DNA from: Anaerolineae bacterium
GTDB lineage: Bacteria > Chloroflexota > Anaerolineae > Aggregatilineales > Aggregatilineaceae
DNA: 64,000 nucleotides
Assembly (NCBI GenBank): GCA_018432315.1
Contig: JAHDLB010000022.1
Coordinates: forward strand, 12,247-76,246
Direction: 5' to 3'
The translations under genes and the position numbers were made by a program. Under the pieces are notes generated by a model, which saw only the letters and a program-made list of their open reading frames with translations, had not been told where the DNA came from and did not search any database. Every line of letters starts with the position of its first letter. The stretch's first letter is position 1. Shown here one piece after another: positions 1,058-43,172 of the stretch.

Positions 1058-1060
1058 GTT

Positions 1061-5162: not shown

Positions 5163-5370
5163 AGTCTAGGTAATTCGAAACAGTCTGTCGGGATCCGAAA
5201 CTCGGGCGAAGAAAAGCCAGTATTATCTGACTAATCTGCCTAGTTGGGGTTGGAAATAGCATGACATCGGTGATGAGCGTATGCGCGCGGAAGGTCTTTT
5301 ACATAATCGGGAATTAGCCACACTTCCGCTGGAAATTACCAGATATTCCGTTTTCTTTTTTGTACATATG

Positions 5371-5436
5371 TGCTATAGTTGACGTATCTGGAACTCATTG
5401 CGCTTTTTCATCTGATGAGTATTATAGAGTTCCAGA
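5371..5436 (+). promoter_or_regulatory. Extended -10-like box plus nested palindrome in the qatA/sspD divergent intergenic region (candidate promoter/operator)
   Basis: TGCTATAGT (5371-5379) resembles an extended -10 box. A 10-bp inverted repeat TCTGGAACTC / GAGTTCCAGA (5387-5396 / 5427-5436) encloses the palindrome TCATCTGATGA (5408-5418). Confidence 0.3.
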
Positions 5437-5502
5437 AAGCATTTTACGTTACAACAAAGTCGATCTCACACCACTGTCAATGTAGAGCACAAGGAAATCG
5501 AC

Positions 5503-7275: not shown

Positions 7276-7283
7276 GTGAACTT

Positions 7284-8234
7284 ATGTATTTCGCAAAACA
7301 TGAAACTTTCCACATTCGCGATGGCTGGCTGTATAAGGGCATGAAAGCCATTTGTGAGGACGAAAACATCTTTTTGGCAGAAGACGCGCCCGAAAGACTT
7401 GGACTTGGCAAGAACATGGTTCGTGCCTTGCGCTACTGGATGCAAGCAGTTGGGCTGTCTAGCGAAGAATTCAGCGGTGGCAAAAAAGCTCAAGCCTTGA
7501 CGCCCGTGGGCGAGCTTATCTGGATGAACGATCCCTACCTGGAACTAGAGGGAACGTTGTGGCTACTGCACCACCAGTTGATCAGCAGTGAAGAACTGGC
7601 CACGACCTGGTACTGGTTCTTTAATCACTACGTGCCCGTTGCTTTTATCTCGCGGGACTTTGTGGAAAGACTGGGGCAGTGGATCAATCTTCAACTCCCT
7701 GAAGGCGCGAACCCAGTTGCTGAAAACTCGCTGCGCAAGGATTTTGACTGCCTACTGCGCACCTATCTGCCGGGAAAAAGGGGGCAATCGCCGGAAGATG
7801 TGATGGCATCTCCGTTTACTACTTTGGGACTGCTATCATCTTTTACTGAACAAGATGAGGAATCTCGGAAGCCCATCCGTGCCTATCGGTTTGAAGCTGG
7901 GTTGCCACAGACCATCCCGCCCCTGATTTTCCTGTACATTCTCCTGAATCGTCAGGCAGAGGAGCGTCCCGGCGCAAATCAGGTGGGTCTGAATATCGTG
8001 CTACGAGAACCCAAAAACGTTGGCCGAACCTTCAATATCGGCATGTTGGCGTTGGAAGAGCTGCTCATGCGGCTGGAAGATATCCATCCGGAGTGGGCGG
8101 TGCGCCTGACTCGCACGGGGGGGCTGGATCAACTGACCTTGCCTGATGTACAGGCATTCGATGTGCTGCGCGTGTTTTATGAGGAACAGACTGTAACAGA
8201 AGAGGTCCGGCCATGGCTACAGCCACTCCACTGA
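7284..8234 (+). CDS. sspB: DUF4007-family protein (SspB-type)
   Basis: 316 aa. The N-terminus MYFAKHETFHIRDGWLYKG matches the DUF4007 signature as I remember it. It starts 9 nt after sspD. Confidence 0.65.
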   Translation: MYFAKHETFHIRDGWLYKGMKAICEDENIFLAEDAPERLGLGKNMVRALRYWMQAVGLSSEEFSGGKKAQALTPVGELIWMNDPYLELEGTLWLLHHQLISSEELATTWYWFFNHYVPVAFISRDFVERLGQWINLQLPEGANPVAENSLRKDFDCLLRTYLPGKRGQSPEDVMASPFTTLGLLSSFTEQDEESRKPIRAYRFEAGLPQTIPPLIFLYILLNRQAEERPGANQVGLNIVLREPKNVGRTFNIGMLALEELLMRLEDIHPEWAVRLTRTGGLDQLTLPDVQAFDVLRVFYEEQTVTEEVRPWLQPLH

Positions 8235-11200
8235 TTCAGACTGCATCCCGATTTCAGCGCGCGATCCACGTGCGTTATGACTTGCGCGACGCCGAAACCA
8301 TCCGGCAGTACATCCCGACCTACAGCGCAGCCAACGCCTTGTCCTCTATTCTGGTCGGCACGCGAGCCGATGGTACCCAACGTGCGCATGTGCTATACGC
8401 CGCTTACGGGTCTGGAAAATCACACTTCGCTGTCGCTCTGGCGGGATTACTTGAAAACGATGCGGCGCTGCGAGCAGCAGTGCTTCGTTTTGTCGAAAAT
8501 GTATCGGAAACAGATCAGCGGGCGGGTGATTTCGCCCATGAGTATCTTAAACGCGACATGCGCTTGTTGCCTGTCGTACTATCGGGTAACGAGGGCGACC
8601 TGACGACAGCGTTGTTGCGTGCTTTGAGCCGGTCACTACATGAGGCAGGACTGGGTGATGTTCAACTCGCAACTCGGTTTGAAGCTGCGTTGAGCATCAT
8701 TCATCGTTGGGGACAAGCCTATCCTGATGTGCTCAATCGTCTAGCTGAGATGACTCGCCAGCAAGTTGGCCTCGAACTTGAAGACCTACTCGAACAACTC
8801 GAAAGACACGATTCACAAGCTTTCGACGTCTTTGAAGACATTTATCCGCATCTAACGGGCGGTGCAACCTTTGATCCGTTCTCAGGACAGACACCGGACC
8901 TTGTATACCGCGATGTAGCTGCTCAACTTTGTGGTTTAGGTTACGATGGCCTAGTTGTGCTATGGGATGAGTTCGGGCGGTATCTGGAAGCGCGAGCATC
9001 CCAGGCATTTAGTGACGAAGCCGCACTGCTTCAGAACTTTGCGGAAGCTTGCAATTACAGTAGCGACAAACAAATGCATTTGCTGCTGCTCACTCACAAG
9101 GAACTTCAAGGCTATGCAGCCACGCTGCCGAAAACGTATCAGCAGGAATGGTCGCGCATCGAAGGTCGTTTCCAGCGTCACAATCTTTCGACCGATCCCT
9201 ACATCGCGTATCGGCTCATTGACGCTGCAATCCAGCATCCCGATGAAGCCCGTGTCGATGCTCTACTTGATGCTGAATTAGACTTTCTCGTCCGGTGGAG
9301 CCGGGAAAAGCATCTGTTTGGTGTGCTTGAAAGCGAGGCCGTCGCTCGGCTCATACGCGGGACATGGCCGCTGCATCCGCTCACGGTTTTTGCGCTCACA
9401 CATCTGTCCAACCGCGTAGCGCAAAATGAACGCACGATGTTCACTTTTTTGACCGCTGATGAGCTTCACTCCCTGAGCAATACTTTCTCTGCGATATCGT
9501 ATGACGACCCGCGCGATATCCTGGTGCGGCCAGACACTCTGTGGGACTATTTTCAAGATGCGATTCGGTCGGATATCGGTGGCACCGGCACACACCATTT
9601 TTGGTCGGGTGTGATCCATGCGCTAGACAAAGTCGCTACCGGCGATATGCTTACCGCTGCGCTGGTGAAAACGCTCGGTGTTCTGCTGGTTTGTGCTGAG
9701 TTTACAGCGGTTAAGCCCGATACAGATACGCTATGTTGGGCAGTCGGCGCGGACAGTCACGATCAGCGGGCTGCTGTCATCGCCACACTTGAGAATTTGC
9801 GTCGGCGCAAGGTGGTCATTCATCGCGAGATCGATGGATATTGGAAGTTTATCGCTGGTAGCGACATCAACTTTGAAGAGCGTTTGCATCAGGTACTCGA
9901 ACGCATCAATCCCACTTCCGCGCAACTGCGGCGCGTGTTACAGGAATACGTTCCAGCTCCGCATACTCTGGCCCGGCGTTACAACCAGGAACATGCCATG
10001 ATCCGGTACTTCACGGGCATGTATCGCTGGCCGCAGGAGATGGAAGGGACGCCATGGGATACGCAACTGGCGCGTGAACGCGCTGATGGACTTGTCATCT
10101 ATGTGTTGGCACGAGACGATGTCGATTGGGACAGGACGTTTCAGGTGTTGCAGGCTCACAATAGAGTTGTGTACGTGCTGCCACGCCGGGATGATGTGCT
10201 GGTATCGATCGAGGGGATTCTCCGTGAGTTGATCGGGCTTCAGAATATCAGCAACGACGCATCACTCAAACAACACGAAGATCGCGCACGCATCCAGCGC
10301 GAGATTGACTGGTTACTCGAAGATGCCCAGACGCGTTTGGAACGGACGATAGCTGCCCTGGTCGATCCGCGTGAAGACAAATCAGTCTGGGTTGTAGTTG
10401 ATGGCGATACGGCTCGATGTTATCCTGTTAACAGCCTAGGACAGACAACCAAAATCGTGAGTGATATTTGTGCTGAGGTGTTTCCGCAAACACCAGTCTT
10501 CAATAGCGAAGGCTTAAACGTCTATCAGCCGTCGACTCAACAACAGAGTGCCGCCCAAAAGGTCATCGATGCGTTGTTTGTCAATCCACCTAGTGAAACA
10601 TTTGGTATGGAAGGGCGAGGACCTGAAATCTTGGCCCTGAATACTCTACTCCAACTGCCGGGCATTCTGTGCCAAGACGATGACAAAGAGTGGATGATCG
10701 CTCGCCCTGATGACCACGCTCTATTGGCAGATGTGTGGGATGAAATCACTGAATACTTAGCGACTTGTCGTGTTGATCAGGGTAGGCCACTCGATCCGCT
10801 GATAGAACAGCTAACTTCGCCGCCCTACGGCCTGAGACCCGGCGTGATCCCGGTGCTCCTAGCCGCAGTTTTGCGGGACAGTCTCATCGTAACGACAGTG
10901 CGGAGAGACGGTCGTGCTGTGACACCGGTCGATGGTGCACTCTTGATTAAGGCGGTGTTTGAGCCGAATCACTACAGTTTTGAGCTAGGCGAATGGAATG
11001 AGACGCTTGAGCATTTGCGGCGAGCGCTTGAAACCCAGTTTAGTGTATACATTCATCAGAATGAACGTAATCAGCAGCCATTGACAATGCTTCAGATGTC
11101 AATGCTGCGCTGGTTGCAGAGTTTGCCGCCGTTCTGTCGAGATACCCGGCGAATATCACAGGACGCACAAGCGTTTCGGGAGCTCGTGCGAAAGGCTCAG

Positions 11201-11881
11201 TTGGAACCATCTCAGGCTCTGTTTGATGAGCTTCCAATACTGCTCCGCGTCGATGAGGCCAACGAGCTGAGCCAGATTACGGCGCGTGTTGATAGCCTCA
11301 TGACAGAGATTAGTAATGCCTATCTCGATTTGCAGCGGCGACTGGATGTGTTTGCTATCGAGGAGTTCGGACAGGGTATTCAGCAACCGGATGGGCTGAA
11401 TGCGATGCGAACCTGGATCGGACAAATTCAGGGAGTCAATGGGCGCCCGATCACCGAGTTCCGGTTCGGGTCGTTGGTTACCCAGGATTTGGTCGATACG
11501 CTCCTCGCCTCGACGAACGGTGATGGGCAGTTCTGGGATAAGGCGTCAGTCGCTGTGTTGGGTGTACAACTACGCGACTGGAATGACAACAGTGAAGAAC
11601 GCTTTTATGAGCGGCTCCGGACGGCACGTGACGAAGTAGAACGTGAAGTAAGCGAGCTGATCGAGGAAGACGCGGTCGTCGCGCTGTCGCTTCAGTTACC
11701 AAATGATCAAGCCCAGGAATACCGTTTCCGCCATTCCGATCTGTCAACACAGGGCAAGCACTTGCTCCAGAACTTCAAGTCCACACTAGATATCGCCGGA
11801 CGTCCACTTTCGATGGACGAAAAGCGCCAGATAGCCGTGGCATTTCTCACCTACGTGATGGGAGAAGATATTGACGACTGA
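8213..11881 (+). CDS. sspC: Large P-loop ATPase (SspC-type)
   Basis: 1222 aa with Walker A AAYGSGKSHF and Walker B GLVVLWDEFGRY. It overlaps sspB by 22 nt and sspA by 11 nt. Confidence 0.65.
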   Translation: MATATPLIQTASRFQRAIHVRYDLRDAETIRQYIPTYSAANALSSILVGTRADGTQRAHVLYAAYGSGKSHFAVALAGLLENDAALRAAVLRFVENVSETDQRAGDFAHEYLKRDMRLLPVVLSGNEGDLTTALLRALSRSLHEAGLGDVQLATRFEAALSIIHRWGQAYPDVLNRLAEMTRQQVGLELEDLLEQLERHDSQAFDVFEDIYPHLTGGATFDPFSGQTPDLVYRDVAAQLCGLGYDGLVVLWDEFGRYLEARASQAFSDEAALLQNFAEACNYSSDKQMHLLLLTHKELQGYAATLPKTYQQEWSRIEGRFQRHNLSTDPYIAYRLIDAAIQHPDEARVDALLDAELDFLVRWSREKHLFGVLESEAVARLIRGTWPLHPLTVFALTHLSNRVAQNERTMFTFLTADELHSLSNTFSAISYDDPRDILVRPDTLWDYFQDAIRSDIGGTGTHHFWSGVIHALDKVATGDMLTAALVKTLGVLLVCAEFTAVKPDTDTLCWAVGADSHDQRAAVIATLENLRRRKVVIHREIDGYWKFIAGSDINFEERLHQVLERINPTSAQLRRVLQEYVPAPHTLARRYNQEHAMIRYFTGMYRWPQEMEGTPWDTQLARERADGLVIYVLARDDVDWDRTFQVLQAHNRVVYVLPRRDDVLVSIEGILRELIGLQNISNDASLKQHEDRARIQREIDWLLEDAQTRLERTIAALVDPREDKSVWVVVDGDTARCYPVNSLGQTTKIVSDICAEVFPQTPVFNSEGLNVYQPSTQQQSAAQKVIDALFVNPPSETFGMEGRGPEILALNTLLQLPGILCQDDDKEWMIARPDDHALLADVWDEITEYLATCRVDQGRPLDPLIEQLTSPPYGLRPGVIPVLLAAVLRDSLIVTTVRRDGRAVTPVDGALLIKAVFEPNHYSFELGEWNETLEHLRRALETQFSVYIHQNERNQQPLTMLQMSMLRWLQSLPPFCRDTRRISQDAQAFRELVRKAQLEPSQALFDELPILLRVDEANELSQITARVDSLMTEISNAYLDLQRRLDVFAIEEFGQGIQQPDGLNAMRTWIGQIQGVNGRPITEFRFGSLVTQDLVDTLLASTNGDGQFWDKASVAVLGVQLRDWNDNSEERFYERLRTARDEVEREVSELIEEDAVVALSLQLPNDQAQEYRFRHSDLSTQGKHLLQNFKSTLDIAGRPLSMDEKRQIAVAFLTYVMGEDIDD

Positions 11882-13031
11882 GGACCGTATCATCTATCTG
11901 GACAACGCTGCGACGACGTTTCCCAAACCCGAAGTGGTCTATCAAACGATGGACCACTTTTACCGAAATTTCGGAGGCAACGCTGGACGCGGTTCCAATC
12001 CGCTGGCTCGCAAAGCTGCTACTCTGGTCGAGGAAACGCGATCGTTACTTAGGTCGTGGCTTGACGCTCCCGAAGTCATCTTCCAACCATCTGCAACGAT
12101 TGCACTCAATACGGCAATCCTGGGAGCGGGTTTGAGTGCGGGGGACATCGTGTATGTTTCCCCGTTTGAGCATAACTCGGTTTTGCGGCCACTTGAGCAT
12201 CTTCGCCAGACAGTAGGCATTCAAATAGAAGTGCTGCCATTTGATAGGCAGACGCTCGAATGCAAGCTCGACGAAGTGAAAGCCCTGTTTCGGCTCGATC
12301 CCCCGGCGATGGTGTGCGTGTCCTTGGTGAGTAATGTGCTTGGTCTGATACTGCCAGTTGGCAAGATTTGCCAGTTTGCCAAGCAGATTTCTTCTCGTGC
12401 AATAACCATCGTTGACGGTGCGCAGGCCGCAGGGTTGATCCCAGTTGATATGGTTCACGTAGATGCCCTGGTTTTTTCTGGACATAAATCGTTGTACGGA
12501 CCCTACGGGATCGCGGGAATTACATTTGGTACAGACTGGCGGCCCTCCCCAGTCATTCGAGGCGGAACTGGTACCCAGTCTGAAAGCATCGATATGCCAC
12601 TCGACGGGCCATCTCGATTTGAGGCTGGAAGTCAGAATATAGCGGCTGTTGCGGGCTTAAAAGCGGCACTTGAGTGGCTAGGCCAAACCGGGCAAGATAG
12701 CATTTGTAGGCATTCGCAGGAACTTTCCGCTCTGCTCTATGAGACGCTAGTTCAGTACCCCCGTGTCGTAGTTCATTTTCCTGCTGATCACAAGAAACAT
12801 TTTGGATCAATCTCATTTTCGGTTGATGGGGTTATGCCCCAAGCAGTTGAAACGGCGCTGGGGTCCAGCGGCGTTGCTGTTCGAGCAGGGCTTCATTGTG
12901 CGCCTTGGTGCCATGAGTTTATCGGCACAATGGCAGCGGGTGGAACGACGAGAGTGAGCGTTGGCCATTTCACCGACGAAAACGACGTCGCTGAATTTGC
13001 TACCAAGTTCGATAAGATAGTTCGTGGATAA
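11871..13031 (+). CDS. sspA: Cysteine desulfurase, class V aminotransferase (SspA-type)
   Basis: 386 aa with IIYLDNAATTFPKP at the N-terminus, the PLP-lysine motif VFSGHKSLYGPYG and the active-site Cys in RAGLHCAPW. Confidence 0.85.
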   Translation: MTTEDRIIYLDNAATTFPKPEVVYQTMDHFYRNFGGNAGRGSNPLARKAATLVEETRSLLRSWLDAPEVIFQPSATIALNTAILGAGLSAGDIVYVSPFEHNSVLRPLEHLRQTVGIQIEVLPFDRQTLECKLDEVKALFRLDPPAMVCVSLVSNVLGLILPVGKICQFAKQISSRAITIVDGAQAAGLIPVDMVHVDALVFSGHKSLYGPYGIAGITFGTDWRPSPVIRGGTGTQSESIDMPLDGPSRFEAGSQNIAAVAGLKAALEWLGQTGQDSICRHSQELSALLYETLVQYPRVVVHFPADHKKHFGSISFSVDGVMPQAVETALGSSGVAVRAGLHCAPWCHEFIGTMAAGGTTRVSVGHFTDENDVAEFATKFDKIVRG

Positions 13032-13099
13032 CATCCCCATCCGTTAGGCGTTGGAAATGAAATGTACGTGAATAATGAACACAGTGACTGACCCGGGTG

Positions 13100-14086
13100 T
13101 CATACTCGACGGAACACTTCAGAATATCGAGGGATTGAATGTTCGTATCTGGTTGGCAAAAAGGCTATCAACCACCGCATCAGAGTTTGCCAGGCTCGGT
13201 CACCGTCAAAACTTGTCATTTGAGCACATGGTAACGACGCCAACAATTGCACAACGGCGCCGAAGCGCTGAGATTCACTCACATAATCATCCACTTGCTT
13301 GATAATTGGAAACTGCAACAACAGCGTTCCCACGTATTGTTCAAATTGCTCGCCACTCAACCCGGTTGGGACATCTAGGAAGGATAGATCAGATAAAGCT
13401 GACTCTCTGGCTGCAGCAGTGAGATCATCAAACCTGCCCTGGTAGGCCACGAATAGTTTTTCAGGTGACCTCAAGGTTGGAATCCAGGCTTCACGCTTCA
13501 TTCGAGGGTACGACGTTTCAGATTCAGTTTGAGGCAGATTCTGCTGTGTGTTGACGGAGGGACGGAAATCGGCTGAACGCAGTGCATCTGCCATCGTTTT
13601 AGCCCGGTCAAAAACATCTTGATCGATCTCAACACAACCCTCAAGCAATTCCCGCTCGAATTTGATCAACATGTCATCATGAGCAGTAGCGATCAGCAGT
13701 TCTAGGTTTGGGTTTCTCGTCCAGCCCAGTGCAGTTAATGTCAGATTTGCTGATCCAATCAAGCAGTGACGATCTGCTCGATAGTACTTCGCGTGCAGAT
13801 CGTTTCTTAACCAAAGCGATGACTGGTTCCGCGTTTGCAGGAAGGGCCAAATCTCAATATCGCTCACACCAGAGGCAATTTCCTCTGGCCGCCAGCGCGT
13901 AACGCATGTTATGCTTACGTCTTTAGCCGCACTTTCGAGCAGGCGCTTCAGCGCCTGCAACTTGATGAATGGCGCGACAAGTAGTAATTCGCACTTCGCT
14001 TGTTGACAAAGCGTTTCCAACTGATAGCCAGGGTTGTTCACTGATTTCCGTTCCGCCTCAGCACATCTTTTAGTCGACGCCCCCAA
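13100..14086 (-). CDS. Single-HKD phospholipase-D-family nuclease
   Basis: HKD motif LHAKYYRADRHCLIGSANLT (HxKx4Dx5GSxN). The likely true start is GTG at 14041, which overlaps the upstream TGA as GTGA. Confidence 0.75.
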   Translation of the reverse strand: MGASTKRCAEAERKSVNNPGYQLETLCQQAKCELLLVAPFIKLQALKRLLESAAKDVSITCVTRWRPEEIASGVSDIEIWPFLQTRNQSSLWLRNDLHAKYYRADRHCLIGSANLTLTALGWTRNPNLELLIATAHDDMLIKFERELLEGCVEIDQDVFDRAKTMADALRSADFRPSVNTQQNLPQTESETSYPRMKREAWIPTLRSPEKLFVAYQGRFDDLTAAARESALSDLSFLDVPTGLSGEQFEQYVGTLLLQFPIIKQVDDYVSESQRFGAVVQLLASLPCAQMTSFDGDRAWQTLMRWLIAFLPTRYEHSIPRYSEVFRRV

Positions 14087-15810
14087 CCACTACGTGCGTC
14101 TTCCGTTCTTTCTCGGACCCTTCGAGACGGTTGGTTTTCTTCAAATTCCGCCCAAGCTATAAGTAGCAACTTCATTGTCTCACCAGCATCAAACGGTTTT
14201 TGTCCTTGTGGCGTAACCGACTTGCCATTGCTCGATGGCTCAATCAGATCCATTACTCGCGCATAGATAGGATGATTAGAGTTGATTATTATGTTGGCAA
14301 CGTTGCCTTCGTTTTTGATTGCAAAGAACGAGTGATCATCTATCTCTGCCGACGAAAAAACATAGTGTATGCCACAATCAATTGTTATGGCATGAAGATT
14401 GTCTTCACTATCGGATTGAGCACCCAGGCTACTATGTCGATTTGATATAGGCTGCCCGTCGGCTTTTTGCAGTAGTTGAGGCTGAAGGTATTCGCCCATT
14501 TCCAACTCGTCGTGCGGGGAACTCTCGTGTCCTGTCTCTTTTTCTCCTGGTAGTTCCTGGAGAGATGGCTGGACGTTCGTTTGTGTGCTGGTCGCGTGTG
14601 GCTCGTGGTTCTGGTCGCGTTTCCTCAAATGGTATACGTACACAGGCGCGAGCGTAGTGTGTGCTGGGGGTTCTTCAGGTTCAGCCAATATGTGTTGCTG
14701 CCTAAGAGTTTGAAGTTGTTCGTATATATCACGATGATGAACTGCTACACCGAGCCGCCTGGTCAACGCCCCCTGCAGTTCTCCGATAGTGGCGGTTTCA
14801 CGTTGACCCAGAAACTCTAGTATTGTTTCCCGAATCTGATCGGGTGTGACGGCGGGTTTTTCCTTTGTTCTGGGGTCTTGCCCATCCATCTTCTTCAGTC
14901 GAAACATTAAGACGGGATGTTGAGGTGTACTCGATGCGTGTGGTTCTGGGCGTGCGAGAAAGCCCGCTTTATGAAGCCCTCTCAGCGCTTGGTTTATTTG
15001 GGTGGGATCAATCCTGTGATCATATATCCGTGCTAACTCGTCTACCAAATCCCGCGACGTGATCATCTCAGAATTCTCAAGAATCCTCATGATACATTCC
15101 GACAGATCCGATTCCAGATGGGGTAACTGTAGCTCGACGTTTTCGTGTTCTTCTGCTGCTGGTTTTGCAGCAAGTTCGTATATGAATATTGGCTGTCGAG
15201 TCGTGCTGTCTGGGTGCTCATGAGGTTCTATGACCACCTTTTTCCCCCTCAGAATTTTCAGGTGTTCATAGATGGTAAGCCCGGTGGACCGAATCCCTTG
15301 CACAGCGAGTGCGTCCACAAGCTCGGCTACTGTGGCAGATCGAAGCTCCTGAAGAGCATTGATGATGTGTTGCTCAAGATCGTATTGTTGTGGCAGTTGT
15401 CTAACCTGAGGTTTTTCGTTTGCCGCTTCGTGTCTGTTGTCAACATCTGTGTCGATTAACTTTGGGCGACTGGCATCAACAATTGGTTCTCCAGCATCGG
15501 CTTGAGCATTGGATTCGATATCCATCCAGTGCATGTGCGAGGCATTATCATAGTAGAAGTGGGTGCGCCCTTCTCGATGAAGCACGCTGTTCACGAGCGA
15601 TTTGTCTACTACGACTCCTCGGTTGGCTAACCCAACAGTGATCTGCCGACTCATGCGTGGCTGTCCGTCAGCCAGTATTTGCCGAATGTGATTCAGAATT
15701 TCCAGGCGCACGGTAAGATCGTCGTCTGCTTGGCGGTTGCCCCATGAGCGCAACAATTTCATACTTGATGTCACTCCTGCCGCATGAAATCGCGGGCTAT
15801 TTTCCCCCAA
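14038..15810 (-). CDS. Protein with four tandem winged-helix-like modules and a C-terminal domain paralogous to the C-terminus of the adjacent GHKL ATPase
   Basis: Three clear repeats share the pattern I..xL....xT..ELvdxL......IYExLxxLRxxxxxxEPxx(8-10)P[IV]x[IMV][YF]xL (aa 143-213, 233-305, 322-395), plus a more divergent first copy (aa 33-88). The C-terminal 130 aa align with aa 478-606 of ORF 15771..17591. The likely true start is ATG 15762, preceded by AGGAG. Confidence 0.6.
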   Translation of the reverse strand: MGENSPRFHAAGVTSSMKLLRSWGNRQADDDLTVRLEILNHIRQILADGQPRMSRQITVGLANRGVVVDKSLVNSVLHREGRTHFYYDNASHMHWMDIESNAQADAGEPIVDASRPKLIDTDVDNRHEAANEKPQVRQLPQQYDLEQHIINALQELRSATVAELVDALAVQGIRSTGLTIYEHLKILRGKKVVIEPHEHPDSTTRQPIFIYELAAKPAAEEHENVELQLPHLESDLSECIMRILENSEMITSRDLVDELARIYDHRIDPTQINQALRGLHKAGFLARPEPHASSTPQHPVLMFRLKKMDGQDPRTKEKPAVTPDQIRETILEFLGQRETATIGELQGALTRRLGVAVHHRDIYEQLQTLRQQHILAEPEEPPAHTTLAPVYVYHLRKRDQNHEPHATSTQTNVQPSLQELPGEKETGHESSPHDELEMGEYLQPQLLQKADGQPISNRHSSLGAQSDSEDNLHAITIDCGIHYVFSSAEIDDHSFFAIKNEGNVANIIINSNHPIYARVMDLIEPSSNGKSVTPQGQKPFDAGETMKLLLIAWAEFEENQPSRRVRERTEDARSGWGRRLKDVLRRNGNQ

Positions 15811-17591
15811 TCGGTACGTGCGTCTTGTGTACGTTCACGCGGGACTCCGTCGAGTTGTTCATCTTCATAGCGTGCCCAGGCTAGCAGTAACAGTTTCAGC
15901 CCCTTGCTAGCTCTTTGAAGACGAGACTGCAATGTCTCTATATCTTCTTCATCCTCAATGTCACCGGTTTCGAGCACTTCCAGTAACTGCTCGTAGGCGG
16001 GGTGATTGACATTAAGCAGTACCGTGATTACGCCGCCTTTTGGCCGAACTGTGAAAAATGCTGAACCTTCGAGATCTGCCACATCGAAAATGTACTTGAG
16101 ACCACTGTCAATAGTGAATGCGGCAAGCTCCTCAGCGTCTTTCTCTGGAATACCACTTGCAACTAGTGTTTCCTGGACCTGTATCTTGCGCTCCTGAACG
16201 GGCAGTGTTCTTTCTTCTTCATCGCTATGGCTGACATGCCCTTCATCACGCCGCCGCTGGGTGGCTTCTGTAGCAATCGCTGGCGGGCTTGACGGATCAG
16301 AGTGACGAGATCGCCGCTCTCGCTCACCACTTTTTTGGGCTGCAATCTGCCGACGCATCATGCGGATGTTCTTGTCGATTCGTTGCGTTATCTCATATAG
16401 CGGCAAGCGGGGGTCCTCGGCAGCTTCCAGTTCAGCTATAGTATCTTCAAACACTTGGTCTTCGGTTGCAATCATCCGTGCAATATCAGAGAAGTTTCTA
16501 GCAGACTGCTTGTTGTTCGTGACGCCGAAGAGATCATCCAGTGCCGGCGGAAAATCGATTTCGACCCCCCACCAGCGTTCGCGAGGATCGTAAGGGACAG
16601 CCCATGCTGCATCCAGCTCGAGTTCTCGATCTGCTCGCATGAGCGAAACTCCTACGTTTCTTTTGGCATGTTTGCCGTGTGGCTTGCTGCCCGCCTGAGC
16701 GCCGCTTCGGGCCTCTTCGGTCGCGATAGAAAACCGGATAATCACTTCTTGCTGTTCTCCACGAAAGCTGACAATGGGTCTGACTTCGTAGCTTTCTGGT
16801 GCTGGCCACGGCATGAACATAGGCTGCTTGTCAAAGGGGGCTGGACAGGAGGTTTCGGCCATCAGGTAACAGGGATCATTAGGGTGTGCGGCCTTCTCCG
16901 TCAATATGTTTGTGGGATTGTCCACATCAAAAGTTTTGAAAAGAATGGTTGTTCTGCCCTGAGTAATGAAGCGACGGTATATGCGTCCCACCAGTTCTTC
17001 GGAGTTATGGATGATTGCTCGTGATGTTTTCCAAAGGCAGCGATCGATCCCTGACCAGACAACAAGTGTTCCAGCGCTTTCAAAGGAGTTTGTTACGTCG
17101 AGCCATATGTTCGGAATATCGCGATAAGCTGGTTTGGGAATGCGGGTCAGAGTTCCTTCCTCGATTTCATCTAGATCCAGATAGGTATGTAGCAGCGTGT
17201 CGGGCCCGTTCGTCCAAGACCACACATCGACGCGGCGACACTGGGAAATCGATGAGGAAGGCAAGCCCATACCGAAACGGCCAATTCCCGTATGGTTCCT
17301 GGGATCTAGATACAGACCATTTCCAAACTGAAGCGCCATGTGCAGCACTTCAGCATCCATTCCACTGCCGTTGTCGAGAACCGCTATTCGATCAATACGA
17401 GAGCGTGAACGTTGGTCGACGATATCTGTTTTGTCTCCACATAAAATCTCTACACGTGAGGCTTCTGCCTGGATGGCGTTATCTACCAGTTCAGCTAGGG
17501 CGTATGCCGCGTTTTTGTAGCCACTGTCCCGCATGGCTTTGATGGCTAGGCTGGCGGGGATAATGTCGTGTTCTTCTGCTTGATTTGTCAT
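15771..17591 (-). CDS. GHKL-superfamily (MORC/HATPase_c_3-like) ATPase
   Basis: 606 aa with N-box ALAELVDNAIQA, G1 box VLDNGSGMD and G2 box GRFGMGLPSS. The start lies 3 nt after the helicase stop. Confidence 0.75.
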   Translation of the reverse strand: MTNQAEEHDIIPASLAIKAMRDSGYKNAAYALAELVDNAIQAEASRVEILCGDKTDIVDQRSRSRIDRIAVLDNGSGMDAEVLHMALQFGNGLYLDPRNHTGIGRFGMGLPSSSISQCRRVDVWSWTNGPDTLLHTYLDLDEIEEGTLTRIPKPAYRDIPNIWLDVTNSFESAGTLVVWSGIDRCLWKTSRAIIHNSEELVGRIYRRFITQGRTTILFKTFDVDNPTNILTEKAAHPNDPCYLMAETSCPAPFDKQPMFMPWPAPESYEVRPIVSFRGEQQEVIIRFSIATEEARSGAQAGSKPHGKHAKRNVGVSLMRADRELELDAAWAVPYDPRERWWGVEIDFPPALDDLFGVTNNKQSARNFSDIARMIATEDQVFEDTIAELEAAEDPRLPLYEITQRIDKNIRMMRRQIAAQKSGERERRSRHSDPSSPPAIATEATQRRRDEGHVSHSDEEERTLPVQERKIQVQETLVASGIPEKDAEELAAFTIDSGLKYIFDVADLEGSAFFTVRPKGGVITVLLNVNHPAYEQLLEVLETGDIEDEEDIETLQSRLQRASKGLKLLLLAWARYEDEQLDGVPRERTQDARTDWGKIARDFMRQE

Positions 17592-17593: not shown

Positions 17594-19201
17594 TTAGTCT
17601 TCCCAGACGTCTTCCCAGTTGTAGAAAGCTTCGGCAAAACTCCCAAACCCAGGGAGTTGTTGATCAACGACTGTTACAATTTCTGCGGCTTCGTTCCCAC
17701 CTGCGCGTGTTCCGCGCATAGCGCGGCCTACCATCTGGCTGTAGAGCACCAACGATTTTGTTGGGCGTGCGATTAGAGCAGCACTCGTTCGGGGAGCATC
17801 AAACCCCGTAGTCAAAACACCATAATTGCAAAGCACTTTGGGAGTGTCTTCCGGATTCATATAGTCTGCGATGATGCGAGTTCTAGTGCTGGAAGGGGTG
17901 CTGCCTGTCACGGAATAAGCCTGAATGCCTCTGGCCTGAAGGATAGCCGCGATTAAATCCGCATGTTCGACAGTCGTCGCAAACAAAAGGATACGGCTGT
18001 GTTGTTTGACGAGGCTTTCAACTTCCAACACAATCCGGAGATTTCGTTGATCGTCAGCGGCTAGCTGCTTCAGAATGCTAGGTGGGATGTCCAACAACGT
18101 TTCTAGCTGTCTGAGATCGGCATCCGATAGTTCTAAGCCGCTATTGTGAAACAGCGGGCGGAAGCTCGCTCTAGCCAAATAACCTTCGTGAATAAGGTAT
18201 TCAACCGGGTTATCAAAACCAGCAACTTTCAGAGTTACTTTGCGTCTTGCAAAAAATCTGGATAGTTGCTCGTCTGCTTCAATATCTGCCCAAGTACGGC
18301 CCGGTGTAGCAGTTAGACCAAGTAACGCAGTGTGGGGAAACGGGATAACTAGAGAGTCCAAGACCAGTTGATAGGTTTCTGCTACAGCCATATGTGCTTC
18401 GTCGATAATCACGAGCGAACAGTGCTGACCGAGAGTACCGATTTTTCGAATGCTTTGCTTCAGTAAGTTATAGAGTTTGGCGAGACCTGCAACGACAATA
18501 CCGTCTTTGACCTGTGCTAAATCAAGTTCGTAGTCTCCCCAAAAACGGTGAACCGAGATGGATCTATCTCCAAGTTGTTTCCAGGTCCGTTCAAACTCGC
18601 TTGCCGCCTGTTCACACAACTCTTCGCTGTAAGCGAGCCAAACCACAACCGTTGGTTCTGTAGCGCGGAGATGATCGGAAATGATCGACATCGCCGTCCG
18701 CGTCTTACCCGATCCTGTGGGCATGTGCAGCATTACACGGTGCGGCGGTTCTGTTAGCTGAATCTTAATTTCCCTTGCGGCCTGACGTTGATGTACGAAC
18801 AGTCCATAAGAAGAATCGAGAACCGTTGTACTGGGCGGTTGATCAACCACTTCTTCACGCGGAATAGACAAACCAAAGAAGTCGAAAAGGATCTGTTCGC
18901 GCTCAGAACCATGACGAAAACGAGCCTGTCTTAATGCCGCGTAATTATCAGTGCCATCAAGCCCTAACACTATACGCAAGCTTTCAGCTTCTTTGGGTCG
19001 CAAAAAATCAAACAGGATCCTTCTATCCTCAGGGGATAATAACAAGCCTGCCCGTGTTCGCAGATTCACGACTAGGTTGCGCAACTCACTAGGTGACATT
19101 AGTTTCGGATCAAGATGCATCAATAGCCGCACAGCATCGCCACCTACGAGCTTTTGCAGCGTTTCATCATCGAGTCGGGACAGAAGATTATCAAAATCCA
19201 A
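17594..19201 (-). CDS. SF2 DEAH-box helicase (ResIII-type)
   Basis: 535 aa with motif I HMPTGSGKTRTA, motif II VIIDEAHMAV, motif III LTATPGR and motif VI QMVGRAMRG. It is the first gene of the four-gene minus-strand operon. Confidence 0.85.
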   Translation of the reverse strand: MDFDNLLSRLDDETLQKLVGGDAVRLLMHLDPKLMSPSELRNLVVNLRTRAGLLLSPEDRRILFDFLRPKEAESLRIVLGLDGTDNYAALRQARFRHGSEREQILFDFFGLSIPREEVVDQPPSTTVLDSSYGLFVHQRQAAREIKIQLTEPPHRVMLHMPTGSGKTRTAMSIISDHLRATEPTVVVWLAYSEELCEQAASEFERTWKQLGDRSISVHRFWGDYELDLAQVKDGIVVAGLAKLYNLLKQSIRKIGTLGQHCSLVIIDEAHMAVAETYQLVLDSLVIPFPHTALLGLTATPGRTWADIEADEQLSRFFARRKVTLKVAGFDNPVEYLIHEGYLARASFRPLFHNSGLELSDADLRQLETLLDIPPSILKQLAADDQRNLRIVLEVESLVKQHSRILLFATTVEHADLIAAILQARGIQAYSVTGSTPSSTRTRIIADYMNPEDTPKVLCNYGVLTTGFDAPRTSAALIARPTKSLVLYSQMVGRAMRGTRAGGNEAAEIVTVVDQQLPGFGSFAEAFYNWEDVWED

Positions 19202-19963: not shown

Positions 19964-20641
19964 ATGTCCCAAACAACAACCATTCCGCAGGCAGTGTATA
20001 CCCGTTACCACGCCTGCTACAACAACGATACCTATCGCGCGTTTAGTCTTGGCCTCGCGAATGCGCTGGGCTTAGATGAACGTGTCGTGCGGGCAGAAAT
20101 GCACGATGAACATCACAACCGCATCATGAACCAACTGACTGATGCGGCGATGGAACTGGTCGGTGCGGAGTTCTATGCCGGAGCCGGAAAACGGCTGGGT
20201 AATGCGCTGGGCGCGCTCGATGAGCATACACCACTCCTGGTCAAGCACGCTATCAACCACCTCAACAACTTCGTAACCGGCGATGAACCCTGGGTTGCAC
20301 GACAAAAGATCGCCCATCTGGCGACGCTGTCACTGGCTGAACATGCCCGTCGTGCGCTGGTACAGACGCTGGATCATGCGGCACTGCTGCCGGGCTGGCG
20401 CGGCACAGCCCCGTACTACTGGCTGCGGGCCTGCTCGCTGCTGGTGCAGGCTGCCGAGATTGTCTTGCGCGATGATCCCAGCGAAAGCTACCTGGTCGAG
20501 AAGTTCAGCACTTGCCTTCAGTCTCTCACGATGGGTACCGGTGAGGTGGTTCGTTATGGCAATCCTTCCCTGGCAATCCAACGTTTTTATGAGCAGCTTA
20601 CCGCCACGCAAGACGGGAGGCATCCCGATGTCTCAAAATGA
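19964..20641 (+). CDS. Hypothetical protein
   Basis: 225-aa ORF with GGAGG 8 nt upstream and plausible amino-acid composition. It is the first gene after the structured leader. Confidence 0.55.
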   Translation: MSQTTTIPQAVYTRYHACYNNDTYRAFSLGLANALGLDERVVRAEMHDEHHNRIMNQLTDAAMELVGAEFYAGAGKRLGNALGALDEHTPLLVKHAINHLNNFVTGDEPWVARQKIAHLATLSLAEHARRALVQTLDHAALLPGWRGTAPYYWLRACSLLVQAAEIVLRDDPSESYLVEKFSTCLQSLTMGTGEVVRYGNPSLAIQRFYEQLTATQDGRHPDVSK

Positions 20642-21113
20642 AACCATCACGCAAACCCTGACCGGCAACGGCCTGGTTTTCGCGCGTACTGAAAGACCGG
20701 GTACACCTCAGCCCTGGTGGTGGATTTCCGACGCGAAACGGGTACCAAAGGCGGAGTCGCAGACGTACCGCCACCGTGAGACTCTCAAAGCGTATGGTTG
20801 CCGTTGGTCCAAGCGCAGATTGGCATGGTATTTCATCGGCGCAGAGTTGCCCAATGAGATCGCCGCTCTGGTAGGTCCGCAAGACAACACCGGTGAACCA
20901 GTGGCGCAAGACGATGTTCCCGTCTCCGATGCACCAATGGCACCACGTTATTCTCCACGTTTGACCGGTTCTGTCACCCCTGTTCGCGAGTCGTACCAGC
21001 AGCGTGTCCTGCGTCGTTTTGCCGAGCAGTTCCAGGCCGATCTGGATCGCATCACGCGCTGTCCGGCGCTGCCTGCGGTCGCGACCATTCGCCTCGACGA
21101 TCCCTGGGCGTAG
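20628..21113 (+). CDS. Hypothetical protein (Trp/Arg-rich N-terminal module, WWWISDAKR...RHRETLKAYGCRWSKRRLAWYF)
   Basis: This is an in-frame ATG inside ORF 20283..21113, preceded by GGGAGG. The upstream part of that ORF overlaps the previous gene and translates to W/R/C-rich junk. Confidence 0.55.
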   Translation: MSQNETITQTLTGNGLVFARTERPGTPQPWWWISDAKRVPKAESQTYRHRETLKAYGCRWSKRRLAWYFIGAELPNEIAALVGPQDNTGEPVAQDDVPVSDAPMAPRYSPRLTGSVTPVRESYQQRVLRRFAEQFQADLDRITRCPALPAVATIRLDDPWA

Positions 21114-21125
21114 GAGGTGACAACC

Positions 21126-21701
21126 ATGACAACTCAGCTCATCCCGCAGCAATATGTGGGGCGTATGAACGTTGTGGGTGACTGCTTCGTGTTCGGGGCG
21201 GCGCTGCACGACAACCAACCGGTATATCTCGACATCGCCGGTCCGGCTACGTCCGTTGAAGCAGTCTGGGCACGTTTGGCGCAAGGCAAGGAAGCCCGCA
21301 TTGTGCCGGACACCGGGTCAAGCATCGTCTTACAACCACCCGAACCGGGGTTGTACACGCGATTCCAGCGTAAGCTGGAAGGGCTGGCGATAGATCACCT
21401 GCTGCTGGTTCACAAAGCCATCACCGAACCGGTCTACTCCGAATTGACGACCACCTACATGTTTTTCGCCGACAAGGACCAGGCAACGGCGATCCTGGGT
21501 GACCACATCTCGAAGCTGGTCAAGGTAGCTGTGTTTCCCGAATGGTATGCATTCCTGGTGCAGCAAGGTCGCCTGGAACACCTGATGCAGCGCTGTGTAT
21601 GTTATGGCGGTGCGCAGGTGTGGATGATTACACTGGATGAGTCCCGCTGGACACGCATTATCCAGGGTGGCCTGGTTTCCGGTGTTATTTCGCTTCCGTA
21701 A
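21126..21701 (+). CDS. Hypothetical protein
   Basis: ORF 21117..21701. The ATG at 21126 lies 8 nt after AGGAGG. Confidence 0.55.
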   Translation: MTTQLIPQQYVGRMNVVGDCFVFGAALHDNQPVYLDIAGPATSVEAVWARLAQGKEARIVPDTGSSIVLQPPEPGLYTRFQRKLEGLAIDHLLLVHKAITEPVYSELTTTYMFFADKDQATAILGDHISKLVKVAVFPEWYAFLVQQGRLEHLMQRCVCYGGAQVWMITLDESRWTRIIQGGLVSGVISLP

Positions 21702-21779
21702 AACGACTCTTTCGTCAGACAGCGCCCCGTGATCGGTTCTCCGGTCCCGGGGCGTTTTTGTGTTTAGGGAGAAATTATC

Positions 21780-24700
21780 GTGTGCGCACGTCTCACCTCT
21801 ATCGAATTGGGAGGATACTATCCGGCCCCACGGGATCAACTCCCCGCTATTGCTTCGTTATTCGCGCCAGCATCCAACGGCGGGCGTCTGCTCGATCCGT
21901 GCGCGGGTGAAGGCGAAGCGCTGCATTATCTGGCTGAAGCGTGGCAGCTGACGCCCTACGCCAATGAACTCGACACCGACCGCGCCGCCGCGTGCCAGAC
22001 ATTGTTTGGCCCGATTCAGGCCGTGCAGGGAGATCTCTACACTTTGCGCGCTTCGTTGGGCAGCTTCAACGCGGTGTGGTGCAATCCGCCGTACACCTGG
22101 GATGTAACCAACAAGGACGACAAGCGGCGTGAGCTTGGAATGCTCAAGCACAGCTGGAAATGGCTGGCTCCTGGCGGGTATATGGCATGGGTGGTTTATG
22201 GACACCACGTGACCCCGGATGCGGCGGCATTTCTGGCCAAACACTGCAAGACCGTCGATGTGTGGCGGCTGCCAGGGCTGCATCTGGGCGAGTATGTCCA
22301 TGTTGTGGTGGTCGCGCAGGAAGGCATACCACCCGATGAACCGGCCCAGTTCGCACAGCGTATTCTGCAAGACGCGGCCAATCCCCGTGAGCTGACCGTG
22401 CAAGACACACCACTCTACACCTTCCCACAACCACGCACCACCCGCCGCTTTGTGTTCGCTCCGAAAGTCATCACACCGGAACTTGCGTTACAGGCGGTTC
22501 AGGCGGATGGCGCGCAGTTTGGCGCAGGTTTTCAACGGCTGCTGGAGCCACCCCCACCGGTCGAGAACGTGCGTCCGGTGGTGCGGCCACGCGGTGGACA
22601 GTTGGCCCTGGTGTTAGCGGCGGGCTTGTTCAACGGCATTGTCGTGCAGACCGACGAAGGTCGCGCAGCCGTGCGCAGTACGGTCGAGCCGGTCGAGCAA
22701 CTGGTCGAAGGTGGCGAGATTGATGAGGCCGACGAAACCACAACCGAACGTGAGGTATATCGCACACGCCCGCAGGTAACGATCACGCTGCTGAACGAGC
22801 AGGGCGAGATCACCGACATGAGCGGCGATGCGGCACTGGTGGACTTTATCGGGCGGCATAAAACGGCTTTGCTAGGTTATCTGGATGAGCATTTTTCGCC
22901 CCTCTATGACTTCGAGTACAGCCAACTCGCGCCCATCCTGGATCGAGTGCGGCTCAAGGGTAACCGGCTCTATGAGACGCAAAAACACGTCACCGCAGCA
23001 GCATACACGGCCCTGCAACAGCGCAAAGGCGTCATCGTCGTGGGCGAGCCGGGTGTCGGCAAGACGGTGGTTGGTGCAACCCTGGCGATTGCCTTACGTC
23101 CGCACATGAGACCGGACCAGGTCGCGATCGTGATGGCACCGCCTCATCTGACCGGCAAATGGCAGCGCGAGGTCGAGATGGTCGCCCGTTCGGTGGGCAC
23201 GCGCGTTCACGCGAAGGTGCTCAAGAATGTGGACGACGTGCGGGCGTTCATGGACGCCAATCTGCCCATGACACTCAAGATCGGCATCATCCCGCGCGAG
23301 ATGGCGAAGCTCGGCGAGGGCTGGGAACCGGCGGTCCATTGGCGCACAGTGCGCACGGCACGCTGGGGGTATGGCGAACCGCGACCGGAAAACCTGACGG
23401 GTGACCGCATTCTGACGACGAAAGTTCCCCTCTGCCCGAACTGCAACGCGACCATCACCCGCAATAAAAACGGTGAGGCGATCATCGCCGATGAGAAGTG
23501 GCTGGGACGCGCACCGCAGAAGTGCCCGGCTTGCGGTGGGGCGTTGTGGCAGCATTCGCGCACGTTTTCGGCTCCCAAGCCCGGTGAGAAGTACCCCAAA
23601 CGCAACCCGCGTATGCCGTTGGCTGACTACATCGCCACTGTGTTCCCGAATCGCGTGTACCTGTACGAGTGCGACGAAATCCACGAAGCGAAGTCAACCA
23701 GCACCGACCAGGGCGCGGCCATGATGAAACTGGCGCAGACCGCTGAAAAGGTTGTTGGGCTGACCGGCACACTCTACGGCGGCGTTGCGTCGTCGCTGTA
23801 CGGGTTGCAGTTCGTCTTCAATCCGCGTGTGCGGCTGAACTACCCCTGGGGCGTCAAAGGCCAGGCCGGGTGGGTGCGCGACATGGGAGCGCTGGAACGG
23901 ATTGTAGAGTACCGCCCGGAGTACGACAAGGGCGGGCACTACACCGGCAAACGGCGCGTTGAGCACAAACCGAAGGAAGCGCCGGGCTGCTCCCCGCTCC
24001 TGGTGCGCGAAATCATCGATCACACGGTTTTTGTCGGGTTGCAAGACATCGGGCGCGATATGCCGGAGTTTGAAGAAATCCCGGTCCCTATCCCGATGGA
24101 TGCCGACATGGAGCTGCACTACAACCGCGCCAAGGACAAGATGAACACCTACCTGTTCCAGTGCCGGATGGAAGGCGACGCGAGTTTCCTCGGACGTTAC
24201 CTGCAAACACTGCTGGCCTGGCCGACTGCACCGTTCCGGAGCGAGAAGGTGATCCACAAACGCCGCTTTGACCGTGAGAGCGATCAGTTCATCGAAATCC
24301 CGGTGCATGACATGCCGGGTTTGAGCGAAGACCGGCTGTATCCCAAAGAAGAATGGCTGGTCGAACTGGTGCGTGATGAGCTGGCCCAGGGCCGCAACGT
24401 TGGCGTGTTTCTGCGTCAGACAGGCACCAGAGATATACAGCCGCGCATCGAACGCATCATCCGCGAGCATATTCCTGACGCACGACCGTATGTACTCAAG
24501 GGCAGCGTGGCTCCGGAACGCCGCGAGAGCCTGGTGCAGCAGCAGCTGGATGCAGGCATCAATGTGCTGGTGTGTAATCCTCGCTTGGTCCAGACCGGCC
24601 TCGACCTGGTGGCTTTCCCGACGTTGGTGTTCCTGGAACCGGATTACAGCTTGTTCGTGATGGGACAGGCGTCCCGGCGGGCGTGGCGTATCATCCAGGA

Positions 24701-25268: not shown

Positions 25269-25279
25269 GGCGGTGCATC

Positions 25280-26203: not shown

Positions 26204-26243
26204 TCCGATCATCTAGCTTCCTCAAATAGAAAAGGACAATCCC

Positions 26244-26891: not shown

Positions 26892-26933
26892 CCGTATCTA
26901 TCGCCCAATACCCAAGCTGAAAGGAACCAAATC

Positions 26934-27146: not shown

Positions 27147-27151
27147 ATTCC

Positions 27152-37527: not shown

Positions 37528-37578
37528 GTTGAAGCCGCTTTCGACCATGTAAAAATTACTTGGATTAAGGGGAGGGCA

Positions 37579-37607: not shown

Positions 37608-37616
37608 TTTGCGCAT

Positions 37617-41072: not shown

Positions 41073-41087
41073 AGCTTACACTCCTCC

Positions 41088-42962: not shown

Positions 42963-42967
42963 CGGGT

Positions 42968-43162: not shown

Positions 43163-43172
43163 GTGTTTTCCC

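Follow-up and report, generated by a model that had tools for sequence, protein, structure and literature searches.

Organisation of the locus

The stretch of DNA analysed here, referred to as the window, comprises 64,000 nucleotides (nt) of contig JAHDLB010000022.1 from an Anaerolineae bacterium. It carries a four-gene operon on the minus strand, in the order helicase-GHKL-adaptor-PLD. The second gene encodes a GHKL ATPase and the third a winged-helix protein, which we call the adaptor. Both proteins end in a homologous C-terminal domain, which we call the tail. The features of the operon are listed below (AF2, AlphaFold2; pLDDT, predicted local distance difference test; HMM, hidden Markov model).

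17594..19201, minus strand: superfamily 2 (SF2) helicase, 535 aa, first gene of the operon (Pfam ResIII, 8e-23; DEAD; Helicase_C)
15771..17591, minus strand: GHKL (MORC/paraMORC-like) ATPase, 606 aa (Pfam HATPase_c_3; Bergerat motifs)
16146..16439, minus strand: charged flexible linker of the GHKL ATPase, about residues 385-482 (consensus of 26 and of 125 homologues)
15774..16145, minus strand: GHKL copy of the tail, residues 483-606 (BLASTP, MAFFT, HMM)
14038..15762, minus strand: adaptor, 574 aa, with four predicted winged helices, a disordered linker and the tail (AF2)
15523..15726, minus strand: winged helix 1 of the adaptor, model residues 13-80 (motifs ILADGQPR and VNSVLHREGR; pLDDT about 95)
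14626..15384, minus strand: winged helices 2-4 of the adaptor, model residues 127-197, 213-290 and 307-379 (AF2, pLDDT 80-94)
14422..14625, minus strand: disordered linker of the adaptor, about model residues 380-447, a leash between the winged-helix array and the tail
14041..14421, minus strand: adaptor copy of the tail (motifs ITIDCGIHY, NSNHPIYAR, LLLIAWAEFEENQ and RSGWGRRLKDV; HMM of foreign GHKL tails)
13100..14041, minus strand: PLD/HKD-family nuclease candidate, 313 aa from GTG 14041 (PLDc_2, ZacB, DrmC)

The tight packing of the genes is what would be expected of subunits that are produced together: a 2-nt gap separates helicase and GHKL, an 8-nt gap with an AGGAG separates GHKL and adaptor, and the start and stop codons of PLD and adaptor overlap in GTGA. 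Promoter and terminator scans of the region between 12.9 and 20 kb gave chance-level results only. The open reading frame (ORF) of the adaptor had been taken to start at TTG 15810, but ATG 15762, which lies 8 nt past the GHKL stop codon and has an AGGAG 9 nt upstream, is the more likely start. The 574-aa form that results corresponds to entry P0130 of the protein collection.

A tail shared by the GHKL ATPase and the adaptor

A previous reading of this DNA, made from the sequence only, had claimed that ORFs 15771..17591 and 14038..15810 (both on the minus strand) share a C-terminal region of about 130 aa. The homology is confirmed by BLASTP, MAFFT and an HMM of foreign tails, although the homologous core is somewhat shorter, at about 120-125 aa. 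The pairwise alignment suggested as a check shows significant similarity: BLASTP of the whole 606-aa GHKL ATPase against the 590-aa ORF gives a single significant alignment (E=5e-23), the informative part of which is the last ~125 residues. The gap-rich extension of this alignment upstream of the tails, through the charged linkers, is excluded from the homology claim. When the tails alone are aligned with MAFFT, they show 34% identity, with 42 of 124 positions invariant and two short gaps. The motifs FF, NxNHPxY, LLLxAWAxxE and RxxWG(K/R) are common to both.

For an independent test, an HMM was built from 90 GHKL tails from other genomes, with no sequence from the window, and searched with filters off against the 658 ORFs of the window that are 50 aa or longer. 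The adaptor matches profile positions 3-125 of 127 with E=5.4e-26, and it and the GHKL ATPase are the only window ORFs to fall below E=0.9. The tail homology is therefore real and more than chance. Among 91 GHKL tails the mean identity is 62%, compared with about 55% for the whole GHKL protein. Adaptor tails are more divergent, with mean identities of 30% among themselves and 36% to GHKL tails.

The tail corresponds to no named domain, as the sequence-only reading had supposed: no match is found in Pfam, NCBIfam or PADLOC, nothing significant among PDB sequences (best E=0.094), and structure comparison with Foldseek gives a best E of 0.17 against PDB folds, with template modelling (TM) scores below 0.3, and of 0.042 against the viral folds of BFVD. 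The AF2 model used for these comparisons was built for the GHKL tail from a 125-sequence alignment. It starts with two short helices, continues with a meander of three strands and ends with one short and two long helices (H-H-E-E-E-H-H-H, where H is a helix and E a strand), and the AF2 model of the adaptor repeats the order E-E-E-H-H-H in its tail. Weak and non-significant Foldseek matches to zincins (SPRTN, MATCAP, SprT-like and IrrE; E 0.04-0.7, TM below 0.3) recur in two independent libraries. The HExxH motif is absent from the tail, and the zincin-like appearance of the model may reflect a degenerate scaffold or chance.

An exhaustive HMMER profile search with the tail retrieved 694 clusters at the 50% identity level (E<=1e-3). 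This exhaustive search was needed, since a word-indexed search with a two-tail profile gave only 8 fragments. The tail has no homologue in the phage genomes or viral contigs searched, and nothing therefore points to a phage decoy.

The two proteins carry different heads

The ATPase head attributed to one partner is well supported. Pfam HATPase_c_3 matches residues 29-155 of the GHKL ATPase with 74.1 bits (cut-off 25; E=1.4e-20), and ATP-binding motifs I-III (ExxxN, DxGxG and GxxGxG) are all present. The Bergerat motifs are located at 17466-17492 (ELVDNAIQA), 17358-17375 (DNGSGM) and 17253-17282 (GRFGMGLPSS). The only PDB relatives of the family profile are MORC2 and MORC4. Residues ~160-380, the region after the head in which MORC/paraMORC ATPases would have an S5-fold transducer domain with a catalytic basic residue, are strongly conserved across the family and are covered by no Pfam or PDB match. 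The linker that follows contains an acidic motif, DEGHVSHSDEEERTLP, at 16200-16247 (minus strand), with a family consensus of roughly EGHxGxSDxDExLPxEER, and this conserved motif could be a short docking peptide. The pLDDT dips at the start of the GHKL tail model. Several thousand proteins match the GHKL query at E<=1e-5. The best 120 homologues are all 590-611 aa long, with 97-100% query coverage, and are named only 'ATP-binding protein'.

The putative DNA-binding array of the other partner is likewise supported by structure prediction. The AF2 model of the adaptor contains four tandem H-H-H-beta-beta units with pLDDT 80-96, and Foldseek relates it at E=1.6e-5 to tandem winged-helix proteins such as TFIIIC tauB (on DNA), UFL1, Rpc5, FokI and AlkX. 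These units are thus predicted to be winged-helix domains. Winged helix 1 is conserved in nine other adaptor-type proteins and is the family-typical head; an HMM of this domain matches the window at E=6e-30. Winged helices 2-4 form an inserted array that is missing from short adaptors, with weak Pfam matches to MCM4_WHD (25.3 bits on the adaptor, cut-off 24.4), Penicillinase_R and RTP. The pLDDT is below 50 over residues 383-462, and this low-confidence segment extends into the start of the tail-homology region.

A word-indexed search of 5.8 billion proteins found no close full-length homologue of the adaptor, which matched only itself. A 719-aa protein at L100 7968..10127 (also present at L101 and L102) combines winged helix 1 with a three-winged-helix array like that of the window adaptor. 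In this protein, a C-terminal region that looks HARE-HTH-like by eye replaces the tail, and the neighbouring genes encode a sigma-70/HARE-HTH protein and a TGT (DpdA-like) protein. This hints at a mobile winged-helix array that also serves in the vicinity of other DNA-modification systems.

Distribution of the tail, the adaptor and the neighbouring genes

We surveyed 80 GHKL loci from species-representative genomes, of which 44 have full flanks, and counted Ssp (DNA phosphorothioation) genes within 10 kb of each locus. The tail is present on the GHKL ATPase in all 80 loci. The helicase gene lies directly upstream of GHKL in 76 loci. A PLD gene is found in 46 loci. Among 49 same-strand cases, PLD is directly downstream of GHKL in 44. 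At least one Ssp gene is present in 69 of the 80 loci and in 42 of the 44 with full flanks, 37 of which carry SspB, SspC or SspD. The module occurs in cyanobacteria, Chloroflexota, Acidobacteriota, Bacteroidota, Pseudomonadota, Actinomycetota and one archaeal metagenome-assembled genome (MAG), and the RefSeq names of its proteins are generic.

In contrast to the tail of the GHKL ATPase, a second tail-bearing ORF is rare. It occurs in three of the 80 loci, all from Mycobacterium (L059, L069 and L078), as a protein of ~195 aa with a winged helix-turn-helix (wHTH) and a tail, encoded between GHKL and PLD. Scanning metagenomes with sequences of the adaptor type added three loci with an adaptor between GHKL and PLD (L086, L092 and L095) and a short contig on which an adaptor is followed by PLD (L093). 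The heads of these adaptors vary, being of the conserved winged helix 1 type, mycobacterial wHTH, helical, or XRE-type HTH, while the tail is kept; changing heads on a constant tail are the pattern of an adaptor. The GHKL ATPases from adaptor-bearing loci group together in the GHKL tree, which points to co-inheritance of the pair.

As more than 90% of the sampled systems have no adaptor, the adaptor is an optional accessory gene and not a core sensor. The picture of a sensor and a motor subunit is not supported as the basic design of the system, given that every GHKL ATPase has the tail and only three loci have a tail-bearing neighbour. For the same reason, the tail has a function that is independent of the adaptor. 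The presence of the tail on all GHKL ATPases and its mean identity, higher than that of the whole protein, indicate that this is a core function.

Two architectures are informative. In P0133, the GHKL ATPase and its tail precede a series of at least five HARE-HTH/wHTH-like repeats that were recognised by reading the sequence; Pfam scores one of these as HARE-HTH (E=4e-9). P0255 is a GHKL ATPase with two tandem tails (independent E-values 1.5e-17 and 8.7e-8).

Several other loci depart from the usual arrangement. At L103 7326..8135, a 269-aa protein with an XRE-type HTH and a tail is encoded beside a large integrase-domain protein, and none of GHKL, helicase and PLD is encoded within 8 kb of it. 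If this orphan tail protein has a partner, it must lie elsewhere. The 896-aa GHKL-PLD ORF at L070 9953..12640 was rejected as a designed fusion. Its tail is truncated (it ends in GLKL) and joined to PLD, and it looks like a deletion or a MAG assembly artefact. The 'tail-only' ORFs of L090 and L094 were also rejected, as they are GHKL fragments at contig ends. Two cyanobacterial loci (L013 6068..7855 and L043 5926..7707) have a second, very distant GHKL protein of ~595 aa, encoded between sspD and the helicase gene, which resembles the family only around the ATP-binding motifs. Its C-terminus was considered as a diverged tail and rejected (hhalign probability 0.3%).

Many Nostocales loci retain the PAPS reductase, helicase, GHKL and cysteine desulfurase genes, and PLD is often absent. 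In L001 (Nostoc sp. PCC 7524, 4166..13274), no SspB or SspC is detected; a 239-aa protein and an ORC/CDC6-like AAA protein are found in their place, and PLD is absent. In L104 (Trichormus variabilis plasmid A), where PLD is present, the helicase is preceded by an inserted 768-aa protein with the annotation 'DndB'. These loci may have a variant modification module.

Proposed function of the tail

We propose that the tail is the assembly domain of the GHKL ATPase and that the adaptor docks its DNA-binding array onto the complex by means of its paralogous copy. We give this reading a probability of about 0.5. According to this proposal, the tail would be a family-specific C-terminal assembly domain of a MORC-like GHKL ATPase, and the GHKL ATPase, the SF2 helicase and the PLD/HKD nuclease would constitute an effector module coupled to Ssp-type DNA phosphorothioation, with the phosphorothioate status of DNA marking self. 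In a sub-lineage, a fourth gene supplies a variable, putatively DNA-binding head on a long disordered leash that ends in a diverged tail paralogue. The adaptor tail would pair with the GHKL tail, or join the same oligomer, at the GHKL assembly site. This would tether a winged-helix array that binds or reads DNA to an ATP-driven clamp and thereby modify where or when the helicase and the nuclease act. What the data show is the tail homology, the domain architectures, the structure of the operon, its linkage to Ssp, the optional presence of the adaptor and the cis fusions; physical contact between tails, the role of the winged helices and any dependence on phosphorothioation are inferred.

GHKL ATPases such as MutL, Hsp90, GyrB and MORC are generally constitutive dimers through their C-terminal regions. 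Both tails studied here sit on long low-confidence linkers, which suits the proposal. The two tandem tails of P0255 are as expected if tails pair, and P0133 can be read as a Rosetta-stone fusion of a GHKL-tail protein with a wHTH array. P0133 shows that DNA-binding arrays can be attached to the GHKL ATPase in cis and, by implication, in trans. With the cis fusion and the tandem tails as backing, the hetero-oligomer through the tail put forward by the sequence-only reading is plausible.

Several observations weigh against this proposal. No co-variation signal is seen, and adaptor tails are not nearer to their own GHKL tails than to foreign ones (for the window adaptor, 32% identity to the cognate tail and 34% to the best foreign tail). 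The residues that both families keep invariant are polar or aromatic (N, H, P, Y, E, W, R and WG), and by appearance they could form a site for a ligand or partner just as well as a hydrophobic dimer interface. The confidence of the tail model is only moderate (pLDDT 76). Moreover, if the tail is the sole dimer contact of the GHKL ATPase, a 1:1 heterodimer with the adaptor has a single ATPase head, which argues for inhibition or higher-order assembly over simple recruitment.

The nature of the invariant residues, which suggests a binding site, could also be explained if the tail docks on a common third component, the helicase or PLD, so that the GHKL ATPase and the adaptor bind the receptor independently, side by side or in competition. 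The helicase would be the most likely receptor, as the tail persists where PLD is absent. The high conservation of the tail even without an adaptor and the adjacency of the helicase in 76 of 80 loci speak for such docking, and the C-terminal end of topo VI-B provides a precedent, since it contacts the cleavage subunit. Nevertheless, the Nostocales loci without PLD (L001, L015 and L019) keep the tail, which makes PLD unsuitable as a universal receptor, and the tandem tails of P0255 suit self-pairing more naturally; we regard docking on a third component as rather unlikely. The same invariant His, Pro, Tyr, Trp and Arg residues, together with the constant linkage to phosphorothioation genes, are compatible with a tail that itself binds nucleic acid or phosphorothioate, independently in both proteins and without protein-protein contact through the tail. 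The sulfur-binding domain of ScoMcrA reportedly has a Pro/Tyr/His-lined pocket. However, Foldseek against the PDB relates the tail to no DNA- or sulfur-binding domain (best E=0.17, TM below 0.3), the adaptor already has four predicted winged helices, and the tail is acidic overall (EDEQ, EEN), so direct binding by the tail seems quite improbable.

The remaining two explanations concern the adaptor. As it has no ATPase head and GHKL ATPases need N-terminal dimerisation for hydrolysis, it could act as a headless 'poison' or brake. Heterodimers with the GHKL tail would then have one ATPase head and be unable to close, and a signal sensed by the winged helices would be needed to release the nuclease from silence. 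Its optional presence, as is often the case for regulators, would agree with this. A brake is nonetheless improbable, because tight operon coupling would give near-stoichiometric amounts and hence permanent inhibition, and because P0133 places a wHTH array on an intact GHKL ATPase, which argues for recruitment and not capping. Finally, defence islands often carry wHTH regulators, and the adaptor could be a plain transcription regulator of the island, its tail being a functionless relic of a partial gene duplication. The fast evolution of adaptor tails, with their mean identity of 30%, would fit a relic, but the tail ORF is intact and shows the same invariant motifs with at least four classes of heads in several phyla. 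This motif conservation suggests purifying selection on the adaptor tail. In addition, the gene occupies a fixed slot between GHKL and PLD with overlapping or nearly overlapping codons, unlike regulators, which usually lie upstream. We consider this explanation highly improbable.

Helicase, candidate nuclease and surrounding defence island

The motifs of the helicase are intact, with Walker A (MPTGSGKT) at 18701-18724 and the DEAH box (IIDEAH) at 18392-18409, and partial matches are found to a RadD-like model of NCBIfam and to PbeA of PADLOC. The PLD protein is matched by PADLOC ZacB and DrmC and by NCBIfam DrmC, and by Pfam PLDc_2 with 24.1 bits, below the gathering cut-off of 27. Its HKD motif, HAKYYRADRHCLIGSANLT at 13739-13795, is intact (HxK(x)4D...GSxN).

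Convergent with the operon, and separated from it by a 68-nt gap, lies an Ssp phosphorothioation module in the order SspD-SspB-SspC-SspA.

5503..13031, plus strand: Ssp phosphorothioation module
5503-7275, plus strand: SspD/BrxP-like PAPS reductase with Fer4 (PADLOC BrxP, 7e-89; Pfam PAPS_reduct)
7284-8234, plus strand: SspB/DUF4007 (PADLOC SspB, 1e-67; Pfam DUF4007)
8213-11881, plus strand: SspC (PADLOC SspC, 6e-144)
11871-13031, plus strand: SspA cysteine desulfurase (PADLOC SspA, 5e-39; Pfam Aminotran_5)

The PAPS reductase of the window (5503..7275) is a long form, whose 590 aa include an extension at the N-terminus and a 4Fe-4S dicluster domain at the C-terminus. The BrxP model of BREX type 4 fits it far better (7e-89) than the SspD model does (3e-12). 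The BrxP-like reductase and the gene order D-B-C-A make the modification module a hybrid of Ssp and BREX type 4. Similarly long SspD ORFs are present in L055, L061 and L074.

A complete QatABCD system (323..5162, minus strand) lies directly upstream of the Ssp cluster, so that the first 19 kb of the window form a stacked defence island. Near 20 kb the G+C content climbs from ~0.50 to 0.58-0.65, and the remainder of the window (20000..64000) carries conjugative-element genes. No tRNA gene is present in the window. The other annotated genes are as follows.

323-1057, minus strand: QatD/TatD, part of QatABCD
1061-2461, minus strand: QatC/QueC-like, part of QatABCD
2434-3168, minus strand: QatB, part of QatABCD
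3168-5162, minus strand: QatA/KAP NTPase, part of QatABCD
21780-25268: DUF6094 methyltransferase-helicase, conjugative-element gene
33442-35463: TraG/TrwB coupling protein, conjugative-element gene
41088-42962: topoisomerase IA, conjugative-element gene
61791-63827: large serine recombinase, conjugative-element gene

Implications

Approximately 84% of sspBCD clusters have been reported without a known restriction partner (PMC8092258), and reviews up to 2026 still name SspE and SspFGH as the sole Ssp restriction partners. The three- or four-gene module described here, which has Ssp genes in nearly every sampled genome carrying it, is a candidate effector for such orphan Ssp systems. A bolder and distinctly tentative idea is that a large share of the 'orphan' Ssp systems has its missing phosphorothioate-coupled effector in helicase-GHKL-PLD, and that the tail is a self-pairing plug by which interchangeable DNA-reading heads (winged-helix arrays, HARE-HTH, XRE-HTH) are mounted in trans on a MORC-like clamp. 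If true, GHKL machines would use a modular principle of sensor exchange that has not yet been described for them. The main interest lies in this implication at the level of the system and in an assembly hypothesis that is directly testable. As a simple handle for experiments, the shared tail predicts residues that would hold the complex together and the way in which DNA-binding specificity modules would be attached to a prokaryotic MORC-like ATPase, and this bears on the targeting of MORC-type clamps in general.

Comparison with known systems

The arrangement is analogous to that of MutL/UvrD/MutH, in which a GHKL ATPase serves as matchmaker for a DNA sensor, a helicase and a nuclease, the last of which reads an epigenetic mark. 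The eukaryotic MutL homologues (MLH1-PMS2) heterodimerise via paralogous C-terminal domains, whereas the partner in the present case is without any ATPase head. The GHKL ATPase itself is not a MutL: the NCBIfam mutl model reaches 22.5 bits (cut-off 180) on the head only, and Pfam MutL_C gives no match. Its head resembles that of MzaB (PADLOC 1e-18; NCBIfam 79.2 bits) from MZA, which is also a multi-gene defence system. An identity with MzaB was rejected, as the score is far below the cut-off of 850 and covers only profile positions 2-196 of 480. In contrast to MZA, neither an MzaB-type C-terminus nor other Mza genes are found here.

With regard to phosphorothioation-linked systems, PbeABCD (CxC-ABC; PMC10853773) likewise ties an SF2 helicase and an HKD nuclease to phosphorothioation genes. 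The window operon, however, encodes the helicase and HKD domains in separate genes and lacks an ABC ATPase as well as any DndE-like or small protein. An identity with PbeABCD was rejected, since the PbeA models cover only the helicase core (83 bits, positions 248-435 of 672) and PbeB, PbeC and PbeD give no match.

As in SspABCD-SspE and SspABCD-SspFGH (PMC8092258, PMC9646914), the candidate effector operon adjoins sspBCD(A). The domain content of these restriction partners is unlike that of the operon proteins of the window: SspF carries a Walker A motif, SspE combines DUF262 with a nuclease, and SspH is FtsK-like. None of the four operon proteins matches the PADLOC models of SspE, SspF, SspG or SspH, and these identities were rejected; the SspF, SspG and SspH models match the proteins of locus L105 at E=1e-219 or better. 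This locus, on Agrobacterium tumefaciens plasmid pAtCFBP7129b (5705..17991), encodes a helicase and a GHKL ATPase of the present family (42% identity, tail included), in the order helicase, GHKL, a 359-aa endonuclease-like protein, sspF, sspG and sspH. The L105 stretch examined contains no gene for Ssp modification. The helicase-GHKL pair thus also accompanies a known SspFGH restriction module.

The closest parallel is provided by the paraMORC operons (PMC2292703), which combine a HATPase_c_3-type GHKL ATPase, an SF2 (ResIII/Rad25-like) helicase and a nuclease, sometimes of the HKD type, on mobile islands with a DNA-modification module alongside. Judging from its head, the GHKL ATPase appears to belong to the MORC/paraMORC radiation, for which family-specific C-terminal extensions have been noted in prokaryotes (Iyer, Abhiman and Aravind 2008, PMC2292703). 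The consensus of the GHKL family shows no evident ExxxH motif of the type described for paraMORC2 (PMC2292703). In the literature searched, the coverage of which is incomplete for journals so that a description may exist, we found no mention of the tail, no name for the helicase-GHKL-PLD module and no paper tying Ssp to a GHKL ATPase. The modification partner is Ssp phosphorothioation here and a methylase in the paraMORC operons, and the C-terminal extension is here a distinct unnamed domain that also occurs on a separate winged-helix protein. The module itself is therefore apparently undescribed, whereas its general theme, the combination of a GHKL ATPase, an SF2 helicase and a nuclease next to a modification module, is already known.

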